In this document: positions 18,173 through 23,671 of the stretch, in pieces | How the letters are laid out: the number at the start of each line of letters is the position of its first letter | Position numbering within the stretch: the stretch's first letter is position 1 | Source: Sulfobacillus acidophilus DSM 10332 | GTDB lineage: Bacteria > Bacillota > Sulfobacillia > Sulfobacillales > Sulfobacillaceae | Assembly (NCBI GenBank): GCA_000237975.1 | Contig: CP003179.1 | Coordinates: forward strand, 2,354,270-2,386,269 | Length of the DNA: 32,000 bases | Reading direction: 5' to 3' | The notes under the pieces: generated by a model | Databases searched by the model: none | The model's input: only the letters and a program-made list of their open reading frames with translations | What the model was told of the DNA's origin: nothing | Position numbers and translations under genes: made by a program

Positions 18173-19564
18173 GTGGGGGCGTTGGATATCATGGGCCTCG
18201 CCTATTGGATCAACGCCGCACCCCTATCCTTAGTCAGCGGATGGAGTTTTCTCGCCGCATTCAACCAACAGGAAAGACAGCACGGATATCCTTGGTGGAC
18301 ACGATCTGGACGATGGGCAGGCTGGAGTTTGCCTCTCATCGGGCTTTGGTGGATCGTGTGGGGTCTGCGGCACCCGATCCTGCTAACCGGAACAGCCAGG
18401 GCGGACCTCGCCGTTTTGTGGTTCGGCGAATTAAGCCTCGTCGGGTTGCGGAGGCCAGGCCGGTTCTCGGCCCTGTTCGCCGGAATCGTCGGTTTCCTGG
18501 CGCTTTTCGGTTTGAATCATCTGATGGCCCAGGGACTGTTGGCCCATCCCCTTCCCCTCAAGGGGGCTCCGAGCTATCCGATTCACGGATGGCCGACGGC
18601 CCTCTGGTTGACCGGCTGTGAAGCATCTGCCGCCGTCGCCGGCTTGAGTCTGGGAAGCCGGGCGGGGACAGAACAGCAGCTGGTGCGAGGTCTCCTCGCG
18701 CTGACGGGTACTGTCATCACGGGATTTTTCTTTACGAAATCCCTTATGGGCCCTTATTTACCGGCGTGGGCCAATTTAATGGACGGCTCCAGCCGCCACT
18801 GGTGGTATTGGATGGCCGACGGGGTCATGGGCTTATTTTGCTTCACCGGGCTACGGTTTTGGGCCCGGGGCCCCGGCGGTCGCGTCGCCGCCCTCGTCAC
18901 GAGCGCCGTACTCGTCGTCGGGCTGGTTTTGTTGGTCCATTGGGCAACCCGTGCCATGGTACCCGATTTTGCCACCCAAATGGGGCAGGCCGCCCTCCTG
19001 TTTGGCGTCCTCGGCGCCGTTATCGGCATCCTCGGGTCGGCGAATAGCCTTTGGCAAGCCGAACGGTTGCTGTTGGTAGGGGTGTCGGGTCTCTGGAGTA
19101 TCGCCTTAACGGGTGCTTTTCAGTCGTTGGCGATGAAAAACCATTGGGTGCCGCGACCGCCCATATCTCAGGTGCCGGCGACGACGGCGGCCGAGATTCA
19201 AGCCGGTCGGGAATTAGCCCAAAACCTGGGCTGTTATACCTGCCATGGGGTGAACGGCACCCAGGACCGCCCCAATCCGGGGGATCCCGGCCAATGGGTA
19301 TGGGCGTGGAATTCGGCGCCCTTTCACCATGTATTTGGCGGGCCTTCCGGTCGACAAAAACTCTGGACCTTATTGTGGAACGGTCAGTACGCGTACCGGA
19401 TGACATTTTACCCCTATCAACACAACTGGTCCGTCGCGTACGACACCATCGACAACCACTACAACGTCCCCGCGTGGAATGGCATTGTGACCGCTCAACA
19501 AATGCAGTGGCTGGTGAGTTATATCCAAAGTCTATCGGTCTCGCCGACCGGGAAAGGAAGGTAA
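18173..19564 (+). CDS. polytopic membrane protein fused to a C-terminal mono-haem c-type cytochrome domain
   Basis: About 10 hydrophobic helices over about 330 aa, followed by a soluble domain with haem motif CYTCH (19232..19246). The C-terminus is cytochrome-c-like (QQMQWLVSYIQSL). The start may be ATG 18191 instead of GTG 18173. Confidence 0.7.
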   Translation: MGALDIMGLAYWINAAPLSLVSGWSFLAAFNQQERQHGYPWWTRSGRWAGWSLPLIGLWWIVWGLRHPILLTGTARADLAVLWFGELSLVGLRRPGRFSALFAGIVGFLALFGLNHLMAQGLLAHPLPLKGAPSYPIHGWPTALWLTGCEASAAVAGLSLGSRAGTEQQLVRGLLALTGTVITGFFFTKSLMGPYLPAWANLMDGSSRHWWYWMADGVMGLFCFTGLRFWARGPGGRVAALVTSAVLVVGLVLLVHWATRAMVPDFATQMGQAALLFGVLGAVIGILGSANSLWQAERLLLVGVSGLWSIALTGAFQSLAMKNHWVPRPPISQVPATTAAEIQAGRELAQNLGCYTCHGVNGTQDRPNPGDPGQWVWAWNSAPFHHVFGGPSGRQKLWTLLWNGQYAYRMTFYPYQHNWSVAYDTIDNHYNVPAWNGIVTAQQMQWLVSYIQSLSVSPTGKGR

Positions 19565-19568
19565 CCGC

Positions 19569-19943
19569 GTGGCCCATCTGGTTGTGATGACCACCGACGC
19601 ACCCGAAAAGTGGGCGGATGCCGGCGAATTCGTCGTCCACTTCATCCTCGCCGCCCTTGCCGAAGGACATCGCGTCGACCTCTTGAGTGCCGGCGACGCG
19701 GTCCAAAGCCTCAGGCTTTCATCGCCGTGGTCCGATTTGGCCGTCGGTCGGCCAGACGGATTATTCCGCTGGCATGCCTGCGGGCATGCGTGTCATACCT
19801 CCGGTATCGCCGCCCCGGATTTGCCGCCGACCGCCGTGCTATCCAGCACCACCCAATTCGGTCAGCTCATGCGACAGGCCGACTGTACCGTCATTTTGGA
19901 ACCGGGGAGGATGGCGTCATGGACAACCGCATCGGGGTCGTGA
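19569..19943 (+). CDS. dsrE: DsrE/TusD-like sulfur-relay protein
   Basis: GTG 19569 lies 7 nt after GGAAAGGAAGG and 4 nt after the preceding stop. The DsrE-family N-terminus is HLVVMTTDAPEKW...ALAEGHRVDLL. A candidate active-site region is WHACGHACHTSGI. Confidence 0.65.
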   Translation: MAHLVVMTTDAPEKWADAGEFVVHFILAALAEGHRVDLLSAGDAVQSLRLSSPWSDLAVGRPDGLFRWHACGHACHTSGIAAPDLPPTAVLSSTTQFGQLMRQADCTVILEPGRMASWTTASGS

Positions 19944-20224
19944 TTCAACGCCCGCCGGACGATCGGCTGGCCGAACTCCTGCGCATCACCTTGGGCCTTT
20001 ATACCGCGGACGTGTTGGCCGGCGTCGTGGTTTGGGGACACGGTTGCGCAGTGTTTCAAGACGACCAAAACCCGGCGGCCCGGCAAATCTGCCGCTATTT
20101 GGAGGAACTGGTCGAGTGCGACGTGCCCGTGTATCAGACCGAAGGCTCCGGCCCGCTCGCGTCGATCAGCCCCCGAAAGGCCGCCGAGTGGCTGAAAGAC
20201 ATCCGCTGGGTCATTGTCCATTAA
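19919..20224 (+). CDS. dsrF: DsrF/TusC-like sulfur-relay protein
   Basis: ATG 19919 follows GGGGAGGA and overlaps the dsrE-like gene by 25 nt. The translation MDNRIGVVIQRPPDDRLAELLRITLGLYTADV..VVVWGHGCAVF fits the DsrE/F fold pattern. The upstream part of track ORF 19610..20224 is a GC artefact. Confidence 0.6.
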   Translation: MDNRIGVVIQRPPDDRLAELLRITLGLYTADVLAGVVVWGHGCAVFQDDQNPAARQICRYLEELVECDVPVYQTEGSGPLASISPRKAAEWLKDIRWVIVH

Positions 20225-20256: not shown

Positions 20257-20541
20257 ATGACCACGATTTTGGCTAGCCAGTGGGAGTCGCTGTTACCGGT
20301 GTTGGAACAGATCGTGGCCACCGAATCACATCACTCGGTCAACGTCATCTTGTATGGCGCCGCCTTATCCGCACCTGACCAGGCGTTGGCGGATTGGTCG
20401 CCGGACGGACTCTCGTCCGTGACCTTTTATTGCCCGCCGACGGGGTCGACATCCCGGCCCGATTTCGCGGTGACGGCGAGTTACCCAGAATTGGTGGCCT
20501 TGACCGTCAGCGCCGATCGCGTGATTTCCGTAACCGCTTAA
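20257..20541 (+). CDS. dsrH: DsrH/TusB-like sulfur-relay protein
   Basis: ATG 20257 follows AAAGGAGG. The 94-aa product has a layout like TusB: VNVILYGAAL, VTFYC, and YPELVALTVSADRVISV at the C-terminus. Confidence 0.6.
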   Translation: MTTILASQWESLLPVLEQIVATESHHSVNVILYGAALSAPDQALADWSPDGLSSVTFYCPPTGSTSRPDFAVTASYPELVALTVSADRVISVTA

Positions 20542-20571: not shown

Positions 20572-20835
20572 ATGCATGACGCTTCAACCCCTGTTCAAAA
20601 CTTGGCCCCTGACGAAGTGTTTGACGTCCGGGGCGAAACCTGCCCGTTTCCGGCGATGTATAGCCAACGGAAATTAAAAAAACTGCCGGCCGGCCGCGTC
20701 ATCGAAATACTCATTGACCATCCGCCCGCGGCGGAAGAAACCGTACCCGGCATCTGCGCCGAGAAAAACTGGCCCTACCATTCCGTCAAAGAAGACGGGT
20801 ATTGGCGGATTAAAGTGTTTAAAACCCATCCGTAA
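20572..20835 (+). CDS. tusA: TusA-family sulfurtransferase
   Basis: ATG 20572 lies 7 nt after GGAGGG. The diagnostic motif DVRGETCPFP (CPxP with the active Cys) is present. The size of about 87 aa fits the family. Confidence 0.85.
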   Translation: MHDASTPVQNLAPDEVFDVRGETCPFPAMYSQRKLKKLPAGRVIEILIDHPPAAEETVPGICAEKNWPYHSVKEDGYWRIKVFKTHP

Positions 20836-20853: not shown

Positions 20854-22113
20854 ATGACGATATTGGCCAATTTGCCGGCCATCACGCCCGGCTGGGTGTT
20901 GATCGGACTTTTCGTCCTGTTAGGTATTGGCTTTGGCATAATCCTGGAGCGAAGCCGCTTTTGCTTCACCACGGCTTTTCAAGAAACCATGGAATTTCGT
21001 AATCCGTGGATTTTACAAGCCGTCTTTCTCTGGATGGGCTTGTCGGCTTTGGTCGTTTCGGGCCTGACCGAATGGGGCGGCGTCCAGCCGCAATTGTTTA
21101 ATCAAGGGTGGTACACCGTGTTCGGCGGCTTTTTGTTCGGGACCGGCATGAGCATGTGTGGGGCGTGTGCCTCGGGTCAACTCTTCCGAGCCGGCTCCGG
21201 CTACGTCGCCAACTGGATGGAATTCATCGGAGCCGGATTCGGCGGCATCTTGTTCGCCCTCTGGTTCTACCCGGCCGTAGAACAGCGCGCGCTCGCGCAT
21301 TCGCAACCGCTGTCGTTACCGGCGACCCTCCACGTGCCGCCCATCGTCTGGGGGCTGGGCAGTGCCGTGTTATTTTTGGGTCTGGCGTGGCGCCTTCACC
21401 GGCGGGTTCCCCAACGGCGATCGGCCTCTTATCAGGAAAAAACCTTTCGCTTGTCGCTTCGGCATCCCTGGAATCCCTTAGCCGGCGCGATTTTGTTAAC
21501 CGTGTTATCCACCCTCTACCTCGTCCTTTCCTCCGGCACGTCCATGAGCATCAATACCCCCAACACGTTGACGATTGCCTGGTTAGTCAATTGGGTGACC
21601 AAACCGTTAGGGTACAATTTGGCCACGCACGGTTTTTTCGTGGAAGCCGACTATCACCATCACATTTATTCCCGGCTCTCCCCGCTGGCGCTAAACCAGA
21701 TATATGAACCGCATTTTGGCCATCATTTGGGCGATCTCGCCCTCGGCGTCTGGCTTTTCATCCCGCTTACGATTGTGGGGGCCTTCTTATCGTCCCGCAT
21801 CGCCGGGGAATTTAAATGGCGGATCCCCCAAAAGCGCAGCAAACTGCTCTGGTATTTAATTGGCGGGGTCATTATGGGCTTTGGCGCAGCCACCGCGCTG
21901 GGCTGCAATATCGGCGCCTGGACCGAAAGTTTCGCTGCCCGCTTTGACTTGTCCGGGCTCCTCTTCACCGTCGGCATGTTTCCCGGCGTCTGGTTCGGCA
22001 CCCGGCTGGATGAATGGGTGGCGGATCGGTTGTGGGGATTTGACCAACCGACCCCGGTCCTCCGTCCCCGACCCCGAGAAGCGATGCCCGCCCAAGCGGT
22101 CGAAGACCGTTAA
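20854..22113 (+). CDS. yeeE: YeeE/YedE-family sulfur-compound (thiosulfate-type) transporter
   Basis: Polytopic protein with the three family Cys-containing segments (ERSRFCFTTAF, MSMCGACASGQLF, ALGCNIGAW). It lies directly downstream of tusA, as in known YeeE/YeeD-type pairs. Confidence 0.8.
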   Translation: MTILANLPAITPGWVLIGLFVLLGIGFGIILERSRFCFTTAFQETMEFRNPWILQAVFLWMGLSALVVSGLTEWGGVQPQLFNQGWYTVFGGFLFGTGMSMCGACASGQLFRAGSGYVANWMEFIGAGFGGILFALWFYPAVEQRALAHSQPLSLPATLHVPPIVWGLGSAVLFLGLAWRLHRRVPQRRSASYQEKTFRLSLRHPWNPLAGAILLTVLSTLYLVLSSGTSMSINTPNTLTIAWLVNWVTKPLGYNLATHGFFVEADYHHHIYSRLSPLALNQIYEPHFGHHLGDLALGVWLFIPLTIVGAFLSSRIAGEFKWRIPQKRSKLLWYLIGGVIMGFGAATALGCNIGAWTESFAARFDLSGLLFTVGMFPGVWFGTRLDEWVADRLWGFDQPTPVLRPRPREAMPAQAVEDR

Positions 22114-22141: not shown

Positions 22142-22324
22142 ATGTCTGAGCTATGGACCGAACACCGGTCAGCACTCTGGTCCCTGTTTGTAGCCATCTT
22201 GTTATTGGCCGTTTTCATGGCCAAACCGCCGGTCAACGCCAGTACCGCCCCCACGACCCATCCGGCCCACAGCACGCCCGGTAAGGCAAGCACTCCCACC
22301 ATGGGTGTCGGCTGTGGCGGATAG
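22142..22324 (+). CDS. 60-aa membrane-anchored peptide with a Pro/Thr/Ser-rich linker and C-terminal GVGCGG
   Basis: ATG 22142 lies 6 nt after GAGGAGGG. One TM helix (ALWSLFVAILLLAVFMA) is present. The single Cys is third from the C-terminus. The ORF is embedded in a longer artefactual track ORF (21860..22324). Confidence 0.5.
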   Translation: MSELWTEHRSALWSLFVAILLLAVFMAKPPVNASTAPTTHPAHSTPGKASTPTMGVGCGG

Positions 22325-22350
22325 ATCTTTTAGAGAGGACGATTAATCGC

Positions 22351-23517
22351 ATGCGAGTTCCTGTACGGCTATCGGCCGTCGCCACCATCTTAGCCAGCCT
22401 GGCGGCCGGATGTGGCCAAACAACCACTCCGACAGCCACGACCGAACCGGCCGTGCATCCGGCACCGCCGTCCGACGGCTATGTCTTTGTCATGAACACC
22501 GGTTCGGACACGATTTCCGTGATCGACCCGAAAACCAATACGGTCATCAAAACCCTCAATGCCCAGGGCATGACCCTGTCCCCGTACCCGTCGGACCAAT
22601 ATGCCCCCGGATCGGGTTATGTTCTCTCGGGCTGGAAAAATACCTTATCCATTTTGAAGGTATCCGGCACGTCGGTTTCTCTGGTGAAAAACATCCCCTT
22701 ACCGACGAGTGTAACCACCAAAAACGGGACGCCGGTTCCCCAAACGGGCGTGTGGGGTGACATCACGCCGAGTGGCACCGGGGTTGTCGCGGTGCGCGAA
22801 GCCGAGAAATATCTCTTTTTGAACATGAATCCCCACAGCAAGACCTTTGGCCAAGTCGAATATTCCATTGATACGGCCCAGTTAGGTCCCCACGGGACCG
22901 GCATCGGGCCCTGAGACGTCTCCTTCTCCCCCGGTGGGGGACTTTGCTTTGTACCCTGTATCTACAGCAATCAGATTCAAGTGTTAAATGTGGCAAAACA
23001 CGAGGTGGTTTCGACGATCGCCAGCGCCGTGCCCAAACCGACCATGGATACCGTGTCGTGGAACGGTAAATATCTCATTGTGGAGGATACGGCCAATCTG
23101 GCCAATCAAGTCACCATCTATTCCTTGACCAACCCGGAAACGCCGGTCGCGCTAGCTACTTTGACGGCGGGCGTCGCTCCCAACACCGATCAAGTGGCTC
23201 CCAACAACCAATATACGTTTGAAATCTCGTCGGGTAACCCGAAAGCGCACATCAACGGGTCCGTCGAAGTCATTCAATTGTCGGACCATCCCTCCGTCAT
23301 CAAAACGATTGCCTTACCCGGATCCGGCGATACCGTGGGCACCTTTTCTCCGAACGGCCAGTACCTTTATGTCAATGTCCCCTCAATCAACAAGGTGGCG
23401 GTCATCTCGGTGTCGTCACAAAAGTTGGTCGACATGATATCCGTGGGCCAAGACCCGGGCGGACTCTTTACCAGTCATTACGATTGGGTTACGCGGCCAC
23501 CCGCCACGTCGAGTTAG
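22351..23517 (+). CDS. YVTN-type beta-propeller lipoprotein, one gene interrupted by an in-frame TGA at 22912..22914 (Sec/recoding candidate or pseudogene)
   Basis: Lipobox LAAGC and YVTN-like repeats (YVFVMNTGSDTISVIDPKTNTVIKTL; VGTFSPNGQYLYVNVPSINKVAVISV). Track ORFs 22351..22914 and 22981..23517 are in the same frame. The 66 nt between them encode a repeat-consistent DVSFSPGGGLCFVPCIYSNQIQVLNV. There is no SD before 22981. Confidence 0.7.
22912..22941 (+). other. in-frame UGA plus downstream GC hairpin (candidate SECIS-like/recoding element)
   Basis: UGA is followed 12 nt later by the hairpin UCCCCC-GGU-GGGGGA (22927..22941). The loop GGU occupies nt 22-24 counted from the U of UGA. Confidence 0.35.
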
Positions 23518-23528
23518 GGGGTGACGTC

Positions 23529-23615
23529 ATGACCCCTTTGATCGATGTAGCTCTCGGTGTCCTCGGTGCCGGATTGGTCATTTGGCAACTGCTCCTGAAA
23601 GACGTATTAAAATAG
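23529..23615 (+). CDS. 28-aa hydrophobic peptide (MTPLIDVALGVLGAGLVIWQLLLKDVLK)
   Basis: ATG 23529 lies 5 nt after GGGGGTG and 11 nt after the propeller stop. The stop is 3 nt before the terminator hairpin. Not in the ORF track because it is too short. Confidence 0.35.
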   Translation: MTPLIDVALGVLGAGLVIWQLLLKDVLK

Positions 23616-23618
23616 GCG

Positions 23619-23652
23619 AAAGGCCAGGTCTTCTTCGAGAAGGCCTGGCCTT
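23619..23652. terminator. bidirectional terminator hairpin between the sulfur operon and codY
   Basis: AAGGCCAGGTCTTC-TTCGA-GAAGGCCTGGCCTT forms a stem of about 14 bp. It sits between convergent genes ending at 23615 (+) and 23672 (-). Confidence 0.7.
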
Positions 23653-23671
23653 AACCTCTTCCCGGATCGGG

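Follow-up and report, generated by a model that had tools for sequence, protein, structure and literature searches.

A putative selenocysteine-containing beta-propeller lipoprotein encoded across an in-frame UGA in Sulfobacillus acidophilus

Most known bacterial selenoproteins are thioredoxin-fold or molybdopterin enzymes, and further selenoprotein families continue to be found. Here, we analyzed a 32,000-nucleotide stretch of the Sulfobacillus acidophilus DSM 10332 genome (contig CP003179.1, positions 2,354,270 to 2,386,269; hereafter, the window), in which a gene for a beta-propeller lipoprotein contains a single in-frame TGA that we propose to be read as selenocysteine (Sec). The closest described systems are the predicted sulfur-trafficking selenoproteins, namely Sec-containing DsrE-like, rhodanese-like and YeeE/YedE proteins, in which a Cys involved in redox chemistry or sulfur transfer has been replaced by Sec (PMC9312934, PMC13188914). 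The window gene resembles these in having an in-frame UGA with a hairpin immediately downstream, in having widespread Cys-containing homologues and in belonging to the same pathway, as DsrE, TusA and YeeE genes are its neighbors. It differs from them in that its product is a seven-bladed YVTN/YncE-type propeller and an exported lipoprotein, and in its motif, G-P-U-D ... V-P-C. In this motif, Sec and Cys are 14 residues apart, in contrast to UxxC or CxxU.

In terms of fold, the protein can be compared with two groups of propellers. With the seven-bladed YVTN/YncE propellers (PF21783, TIGR02276, the structure 1l0q and Escherichia coli YncE), it shares the repeat family and the fold, yet it is not an orthologue of E. 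coli YncE (NF052280, 15 bits against a cut-off of 400), and it differs from these propellers in its conserved Cys/Sec site and in its location in a sulfur-trafficking gene cluster. SELENBP1 and the methanethiol oxidase MtoX are also beta-propellers linked to selenium and sulfur chemistry. In SELENBP1, however, selenium is bound after translation rather than encoded by a UGA. As for MtoX (NF052453), a Cys-containing homologue of the window protein, P0001, gave a weak, partial match over the stretch with the conserved Cys (E = 2.7e-5, 22.8 bits), far under the 650-bit cut-off, while the window protein itself gave no match. Membership in the MtoX and L-NosZ families was thus rejected, with NCBIfam scores far below the cut-offs, and no selenoprotein-specific or equivalog NCBIfam model was matched.

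No propeller, YVTN, YncE or lactonase entry appears in the "complete list" of 87 prokaryotic selenoprotein families from 2022 (PMC9312934 Table 1), and no propeller, YVTN or YncE entry appears in the family table of a 2026 review (PMC13188914). The terms "propeller", "YncE" and "YVTN" are likewise absent from the deep-Sep and BSepDB papers. A literature search returned no pairing of YncE with selenoproteins, and a single paper with both YVTN and selenocysteine, in unrelated passages, with a very recent listing still being possible. The novelty lies in the family, its fold and its place in the cell, while decoding would follow the known bacterial mechanism.

The gene is deposited as two open reading frames (ORFs), 22351..22914 and 22981..23517. 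Translation places both in one frame, running from ATG 22351 to TAG 23515..23517, in which the sole internal stop is the TGA at 22912..22914, codon 188 of 388. The features of the gene are listed below; SECIS denotes the selenocysteine insertion sequence.

22333..22339, + strand: Shine-Dalgarno-like GAGAGGA, 11 nt before ATG 22351, from reading of the sequence.
22351..23517, + strand: predicted selenoprotein gene, 388 codons plus TAG, from profile matches, purifying selection and a homologue model.
22351..22413, + strand: lipoprotein signal peptide with lipobox L-A-A-G-C, the Cys21 codon being 22411..22413, identified by eye.
22912..22914, + strand: in-frame UGA, codon 188, most likely read as selenocysteine, from TGA in 14 assemblies of five lineages and Cys in 25 homologues.
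22927..22941, + strand: SECIS-like upper stem-loop UCCCCC-GGU-GGGGGA, with a 6-bp stem (U16-A30, C17-G29 through to C21-G25) and the triloop GGU at 22933..22935.
22945..22947, + strand: Cys199 codon TGC, present in S. acidophilus only, with H, Y or A in the other Sec lineages.
22957..22959, + strand: Cys203 codon TGT in a V-P-C motif, shared by the five Sec lineages; this Cys may act as a resolving or partner residue.

The GenBank entries split this gene into two hypothetical proteins, TPY_1252/TPY_1251 in strain TPY and AEW05864/AEW05865 in DSM 10332. An earlier note on this DNA, made from the sequence alone, had taken the two ORFs to be one gene broken by the TGA, and the frame, together with the pattern of codon changes described below, bears this out. 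Its remark that the second ORF lacks a Shine-Dalgarno sequence also holds, as none is read before 22981. Its translation of the 66 nt that follow the TGA needs correction: the true length is 22 residues, DVSFSPGGGLCFVPCIYSNQIQ, and the 26-residue string that was quoted extends into the second ORF. TGA serves as an ordinary stop codon in 7 of the 27 window genes, and the genetic code is therefore not reassigned. The only Cys residues in the translation are Cys21 in the lipobox (LAAGC), Cys199 and Cys203, and the mature propeller lipoprotein would be of ~38.5 kDa. Taken with the comparisons that follow, it is very probable that the two ORFs form a single S. acidophilus gene in which the UGA at codon 188 is recoded, and selenocysteine is, with similar assurance, the residue most likely encoded there.

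The TGA is a real feature of the locus. The corresponding locus of S. acidophilus TPY (CP002901.1) equals the window over 13,260 bases, including an identical neighboring YeeE protein. The TGA was found in strain TPY, in five sequencing runs as assembled by Logan, in three metagenomes (one from ENA and two from JGI) and in one metagenome-assembled genome (MAG), and is kept in 9 S. acidophilus-clade assemblies, that is, in every independent assembly that spans the site. These assemblies include loci identical to the window (L001, L003 and L004), as well as loci that differ from it at 7 positions within the gene (L002), at 21 of 926 positions (L014) or by ~5% (59-60 of 1,167 bases; L010, L011, L012 and L013), all with the TGA kept. 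As the TGA is present in all independent assemblies, the sequencing or assembly error that had been raised beforehand as a counter-hypothesis is excluded. An exact search of the species-representative genome collection with 63 nt of the TGA region gave 0 matches, which is biologically meaningless as this region is probably masked.

To assess selection on the frame, we compared the window with the ~5% divergent locus L010, codon by codon. Before the TGA, there are 22 synonymous and 6 non-synonymous changes. Codons 188-210 would lie outside any coding sequence were GTG 22981 the start of a second gene, and here there are 4 synonymous and 0 non-synonymous changes, and beyond codon 210 there are 20 and 4, respectively. 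All post-TGA codons together thus give 24/4, where the neutral synonymous fraction is 0.244 (P = 1.5e-11). When the same post-TGA differences are read in the other two frames, 2 are synonymous and 26 are non-synonymous. No indels or additional stops in the gene separate the two loci. The whole read-through frame is under purifying selection. The comparison with L002 was given little weight, as its differences are clustered: 8 of the 18 differences found over 8.9 kb fall within 380 bases (window 23148..23529), and of the 7 that lie within the gene, all 3' of the TGA, 6 are synonymous. This cluster may be a recombination tract whose source was a more divergent strain.

Homologues were collected by a word-indexed protein search and then by an exhaustive hidden Markov model (HMM) search. 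In the former, P0001 and P0002 were the only close homologues of full length (33% identity), each with Cys opposite the TGA (G-L-C-D-[I/V]-S versus G-P-TGA-D-V-S). The latter revealed a broad family, whose full-length members (P0018, P0019, P0027, P0029, P0037, P0040, P0043, P0044, P0056, P0077 and P0105) all share G-[P/I/L]-C-D-x-[S/T], and also returned half-length proteins that start or stop exactly at the TGA column. The DNA behind these half-length proteins contains an in-frame TGA in the same column (G-P-TGA-D-[V/M]-S) in L095/L098, L097, L099 and L096, where L098 (MAG Bacillota HOT.CON.99) is of the same lineage as L095, and L099 is MAG Bacillota LSA3.bin48. In L095 to L099, the ORF runs on past the TGA to a normal end without any other stop or frameshift, and the N- and C-terminal halves are 49-73% and 42-57% identical, respectively, to those of the window protein. 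In total, the TGA occupies one column in 14 assemblies of 5 lineages, i.e., S. acidophilus and four further Bacillota lineages.

Cys stands at this column in 25 full-length homologues, namely 12 proteins (alignment A4, sharing G-x-C-D) and 13 Cys-form loci. These Cys forms come from Actinomycetes, haloarchaea (Halobellus and Halovenus) and metagenomes, and use TGT or TGC as the codon. In P0001, P0002 and P0018, the column Cys is the sole Cys apart from that of the lipobox or signal region. Selenoproteins are classically recognized by a UGA that is conserved, by homologues with Cys in its place and by conserved sequence on either side (PMC12013277), and each of these is seen here: the UGA lies at the same position with both flanks conserved, and the aligned homologues have Cys. 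Orthologues thus carry TGA and distant homologues Cys, so that Sec188 would replace the single conserved Cys of the wider family. The other origins considered in the earlier note, a TGG (Trp) or GGA (Gly) codon changed to TGA, were ruled out, as the homologues have Cys and neither residue is found at this column in orthologues or homologues. A scan of metagenome contigs with the generic pattern T[VI]SVIDP (alignment A2) yielded only YncE-like propellers at ~25% identity and was uninformative.

The hairpin downstream of the UGA was compared with the SECIS of E. coli fdhF. The fdhF element used for comparison gave a 100% match to fdhF in 5,419 of 5,426 E. coli genomes. Both elements lie directly 3' of the UGA within the coding sequence and both have GGU at nt 22-24 from the U of UGA. 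The minimal E. coli element starts 11 nt after the UGA, and the window hairpin begins 12 nt after it, with 18 nt from UGA to loop and an energy of -9.7 to -11.6 kcal/mol. The place of the hairpin, the position of its GGU and the near-equal spacing to fdhF are thus as had been noticed before. The window loop differs in being a 3-nt triloop on a nearly pure C:G stem. The third loop base, moreover, is U, G or A among the Sec lineages, and contact with SelB is only predicted.

Consensus bacterial SECIS elements have an apical loop of 3-9 nt, an upper stem of 4-16 bp, 16-37 nt between UGA and loop, a minimum free energy of -7.5 kcal/mol or lower, and G in the first two loop positions, with G or U as the usual next base (PMC13188914). 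When these published constraints were applied by our own script, rather than by bSECISearch, the window and the 4 other lineages fell within all of them. All 6 Sec-form sequences present a perfect stem of 6-7 bp with a triloop, 18-19 nt after the UGA (-7.8 to -13.6 kcal/mol), the triloop being GGU in the window and L096, GGG in L095, L098 and L097, and GGA in L099. In L095 to L099, an extra lower stem of ~8 bp extends the structure to a ~40-nt element (-16.5 to -22.5 kcal/mol). Covariation was scored on a hairpin-anchored alignment of five distinct sequences, with the register chosen by us, against 500 shuffles. Four of the 7 stem pairs have changed on both sides, for example one that reads C-G, G-C or U-A and another that reads U-A, G-C, A-U or G·U. 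The score was 0.586, as compared with 0.185 for shuffled alignments; 0 of the 500 shuffles reached the observed score, and slid registers gave at most 0.171 throughout. The hairpin is kept in place in five lineages and shows compensatory pair changes.

The Cys forms provide a useful reference. In 0 of the 13 Cys-form genes, high-GC haloarchaea and Actinomycetes included, was a compliant hairpin of -7.5 kcal/mol or lower found, the best being -4.6 kcal/mol. The peptide encoded by the hairpin also differs, being [S/G]-P-[G/R]-G-x in the Sec forms versus S-P-[S/D/N]-G-[K/R/Q] in the Cys forms. This difference runs in the direction that creates a hairpin, as a SECIS embedded in coding sequence would be expected to impose. 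Hairpins of at least 5 bp follow ~45% of the TGA triplets in the window and are thus common, while at least 5 G:C pairs with a GGU loop are found after 3 of 858 window TGAs.

The host is recorded in the literature as a user of selenocysteine. In PMC5029168 (Table S2), S. acidophilus and its strain TPY appear among the Sec-utilizing organisms, a status judged by SelD/SelA/SelB, and are credited with 7 known selenoproteins. Putative Sec-containing formate dehydrogenases have been described in all Sulfobacillus genomes (Justice et al. 2014, PMC4378227), and an annotated Sec-containing peroxiredoxin, PrxU, was up-regulated in a proteomic comparison of S. thermotolerans.

The assignment of selenocysteine has some weak points that should be considered. 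The Sec machinery of the host is taken from published tables. The covariation comes from only five sequences aligned by the hairpin itself, and should be taken as supportive rather than decisive. The region is no more stable than shuffled sequence (z = +0.84 to -1.1), although stability relative to shuffles is a poor test for a C5/G5 hairpin. A search of 22800..23100 by Rfam cmscan, at E up to 10, returned no SECIS family and only a spurious snoRNA match, and this is weak negative evidence, as the Rfam models of bacterial SECIS are narrow. When the region was recoded synonymously according to window codon usage, a compliant hairpin still arose in 2-41% of trials, and one as good as that observed in 0.5-21%. 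Finally, in comparison with fdhF, the S. acidophilus element lacks both the bulged U and the lower stem, even though a lower stem is present in its relatives L095 to L099.

Other explanations of the locus have to be weighed together with these points. The gene could be dead or dying, a Cys codon (TGT or TGC) having mutated to TGA. Such a change needs only one base, the homologues do carry Cys, and the GenBank entries are two hypothetical proteins. The TGA is, however, shared by five lineages down to ~42% protein identity without a further stop or frameshift, and the synonymous to non-synonymous ratio downstream of the TGA matches that upstream, at the P value given above. As neither relaxed constraint, nor an unshared stop, nor further disabling mutations were seen, we consider a pseudogene to be extremely unlikely. 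It could also be argued that two polypeptides, of 187 and ~178 residues, are made separately by use of an internal start and then assemble into a propeller. Indeed, gene callers place a GTG or ATG start shortly after the TGA in every lineage, and in L096 and L099 an ATG stands two codons past the TGA. Yet this start is not conserved, being at codon 211 in the window, 201 in L010 and 190 in L095 and L096, while window codon 190 is GTC, and the start at 22981 lacks a Shine-Dalgarno sequence, as noted. The 22 codons from the TGA to GTG 22981 evolve as coding sequence and encode the conserved D-[V/M]-S..P.G....V-P-C. Furthermore, the C-terminal half lacks a signal peptide, which would prevent it from meeting an exported lipoprotein. 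A split gene is accordingly very unlikely.

Purifying selection shows translation of the frame but does not identify the residue placed at the UGA. The UGA might thus be read by a near-cognate Trp, Cys or Arg tRNA, with the hairpin only slowing the ribosome or release factor 2, and the lack of a matching Rfam SECIS model would agree with this. Nonetheless, the Cys homologues, the G-rich loop at canonical spacing and a Sec-using host with 7 selenoproteins all fit Sec, and we know of no precedent for conserved non-Sec read-through of UGA at a catalytic Cys position in bacteria; we regard such read-through as unlikely. A last explanation concerns the hairpin alone, which could serve as an intrinsic terminator or as an attenuator, or could simply follow from Pro-Gly-Gly codons, and be unrelated to recoding. 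A terminator scan flags 22927..22940, with the T-rich tail ACTTTGCTTT (to 22951), as terminator-like. This tail is missing in L095, L096, L097 and L098, and the terminator reading was ruled out as the tail is not conserved. With regard to a codon by-product, a caveat already voiced in the earlier note, part of the argument stands, as the recodings described above show that a compliant hairpin can persist by codon choice. Moreover, even in haloarchaeal Cys forms (L105 and L108, both Halobellus), a 4-bp mini-hairpin, CCCC-GAC-GGGG, is found 18 nt after the Cys codon, at the site of the SECIS-like hairpin; P-x-G codons predispose to such a mini-hairpin, which is a plausible evolutionary seed of the SECIS. 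The other part does not stand, as the peptide itself differs between Sec and Cys forms, and the stem shows compensatory changes while the peptide varies (SPGGG, GPRGG, SPRGG, SPGGT and GPGGA). With no Cys-form gene reaching -7.5 kcal/mol, a hairpin unrelated to recoding is hardly credible. Selenocysteine at codon 188 thus remains our preferred reading.

With respect to the fold, the protein matches the YVTN/YncE-type propellers in both Pfam PF21783 (YNCE; 34.5 bits, cut-off 27.1) and TIGR02276 (44.6 bits, cut-off 27.85). The lipobox motif, ...ILASLAAG-C21-GQ, was judged by eye rather than by a predictor, and its A-G-C-G is kept in all Sec-form lineages for which the N-terminus was recovered. 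The AlphaFold model of the Cys-form homologue P0001 is a seven-bladed propeller (predicted local distance difference test score, pLDDT, of 83.9), with the archaeal S-layer YVTN domain 1l0q as its best PDB match in Foldseek (E = 1.6e-19). Here, the conserved Cys183 is placed in a loop that immediately precedes the first strand of a blade and Asp198 ends the next strand, such that the two are predicted to flank one beta-hairpin on the same face. According to the secondary structure of the model, Sec188 would likewise sit just before the first strand of a blade.

The position of Cys203, 15 residues after the Sec/Cys column, is held by Asp ([I/V]-P-D) in the 13 Cys-form loci and in most other Cys-form proteins. 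The CFVPC motif had been put forward as a unique Cys pair. While Cys199 and Cys203 are indeed the sole non-lipobox Cys residues of the protein, only Cys203 is conserved across the Sec forms, and Cys199 was rejected from the pair as specific to S. acidophilus. The alternation of Cys...Asp and Sec...Cys pairs suggests a nucleophile with a general base in the former and a selenol with a resolving thiol in the latter.

The Sec and Cys forms also differ in other regions. Many Cys forms (P0018, P0027, P0037, P0040, P0043, P0044, P0056, P0105 and L105 to L109) have a twin-arginine (RRDFL-type) signal rather than a lipobox, and several of these end in C-P-x-x-C-C-G, a possible sign of a cofactor or metal site. 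Neither this motif nor the twin-arginine signal is found in the Sec forms. In L095 (5920..6984) and L099 (9043..10176), a second propeller lipoprotein gene, a paralogue of the P0069 type, lies directly 3' of the selenoprotein gene. This paralogue has no Cys or Sec, its column reading G-P-R-S, and is not found at the S. acidophilus locus, where codY is next instead.

Upstream of the propeller gene, the window contains the following genes.

18173..19564, + strand: start of the cluster; gene for a polytopic membrane protein that ends in a mono-haem cytochrome c domain (Cytochrom_C, E = 3.3e-6).
19569..19943, 19919..20224 and 20257..20541, + strand: three small DsrE/F/H-like genes, with a weak DsrE match.
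20572..20835, + strand: TusA sulfurtransferase gene (TusA, E = 2.9e-14).
20854..22113, + strand: YeeE/YedE-type sulfur (thiosulfate) transporter gene (Sulf_transp, E = 7.8e-50).
22142..22324, + strand: conserved gene for a 60-residue protein that has a single transmembrane helix and a tail rich in Pro, Thr and Ser, and ends in GVGCGG, the same C-terminus being found in L095, L097 and L010.

With DsrE-like, TusA and YeeE/Sulf_transp genes upstream, the cluster had rightly been described as a sulfur-trafficking operon. The same order, i.e., a gene in the position of the membrane cytochrome c, three DsrE/F/H-like genes, TusA, YeeE, the 60-residue peptide and the propeller gene, is found in S. acidophilus, L095 and L096, and the L095 counterparts of the three small genes match Pfam DsrE, DsrE and DsrH. 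The 463-residue product of 18173..19564 carries a CYTCH motif, with a faint match to cytochrome 579, and is a possible electron acceptor on the outer face. At L010 and L011, two loci of the S. acidophilus clade, its gene again comes first in the cluster, while the first cluster genes of L095 and L096 have no recorded Pfam match. A gene for a peptide of 60-62 residues lies between the YeeE and propeller genes at L095 4437..4625, L097 221..406 and L010 5793..5975, and an 82-residue analogue that ends in ...SLGGC is encoded at the Cys-form locus L007 (6884..7132). The GVGCGG-tailed peptide has no NCBIfam family match, and may be a membrane-tethered Cys 'arm' that carries sulfur.

The surroundings of the Cys forms point in a similar direction. 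Actinobacterial-type loci have YeeE-TusA and DsrE-like genes before the propeller gene, and genes for DsbD_TM (CcdA-like) and thioredoxin after it, which would keep an exported thiol reduced, while the Halobellus Cys form is followed by a tandem rhodanese gene. Directly 3' of the S. acidophilus gene, a hydrophobic 28-residue ORF, MTPLIDVALGVLGAGLVIWQLLLKDVLK (23530..23616, + strand), is preceded by a Shine-Dalgarno-like GGGGGTG and followed at ~23622..23653 by an inverted repeat common with the convergent codY gene.

On the basis of these observations, we propose the following scheme for decoding and role. The GGU loop of the stem-loop at 22927..22941, 18 nt past the UGA, would bring SelB and Sec-tRNA(Sec) to the ribosome. 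The product would be an exported, lipid-anchored propeller with Sec188 as a reactive nucleophile in extracytoplasmic sulfur handling. Sec188 would attack the S-S bonds of polysulfide, polythionate or thiosulfate-type substrates to yield a Se-S adduct. Either Cys203 or the C-terminal Cys of the neighboring 60-residue membrane-tethered peptide could resolve this adduct, and the product would then be passed to the YeeE transporter and on to the cytoplasmic relay of TusA and DsrE-like proteins. The pKa of a selenol is about 5. At the outer face of the membrane, in an organism whose habitat is near pH 2, a selenol would stay far more reactive than a thiol, and this would explain the change from Cys...Asp to Sec...Cys.

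We are far less confident of such an extracytoplasmic role, in which sulfur would be activated or transferred to feed YeeE, than of the recoding itself. The role is deduced solely from gene context, residue conservation and chemistry, and the comparison of the model with the PDB gave generic propellers only (YVTN S-layer proteins, lactonases, NirN/NirF, hydrazine synthase, NosZ and thiocyanate dehydrogenase), with no functional assignment. An even broader proposal can be offered only tentatively, and we would not favor it as a whole: that the protein founds a selenoprotein family not yet listed and is the first beta-propeller known to contain Sec, translocon-exported and exposed to acid at the outer membrane surface of an extreme acidophile, in which a Sec...Cys pair has replaced a catalytic Cys...Asp pair to keep the nucleophile reactive near pH 2, and that, together with the GVGCGG peptide and the haem c protein, it might form an undescribed extracellular sulfur-entry step to the YeeE/TusA/DsrE relay.

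The merging of the two deposited ORFs yields a 388-residue protein that would be the eighth selenoprotein of S. acidophilus, and would add both the beta-propeller fold and an extracytoplasmic lipoprotein location to the bacterial selenoprotein catalogue. The idea that Sec is favored where thiols are protonated becomes directly testable through the switch from Cys...Asp to Sec...Cys. Beyond this organism, the Sec/Cys column points to the probable active site of a propeller family that is widespread but uncharacterized, and whose genes accompany those for YeeE, TusA, DsrE and rhodanese in Bacillota, Actinomycetes and haloarchaea. As Sulfobacillus is an industrial bioleaching organism, a previously unrecognized extracellular protein that handles sulfur would also be of practical interest.

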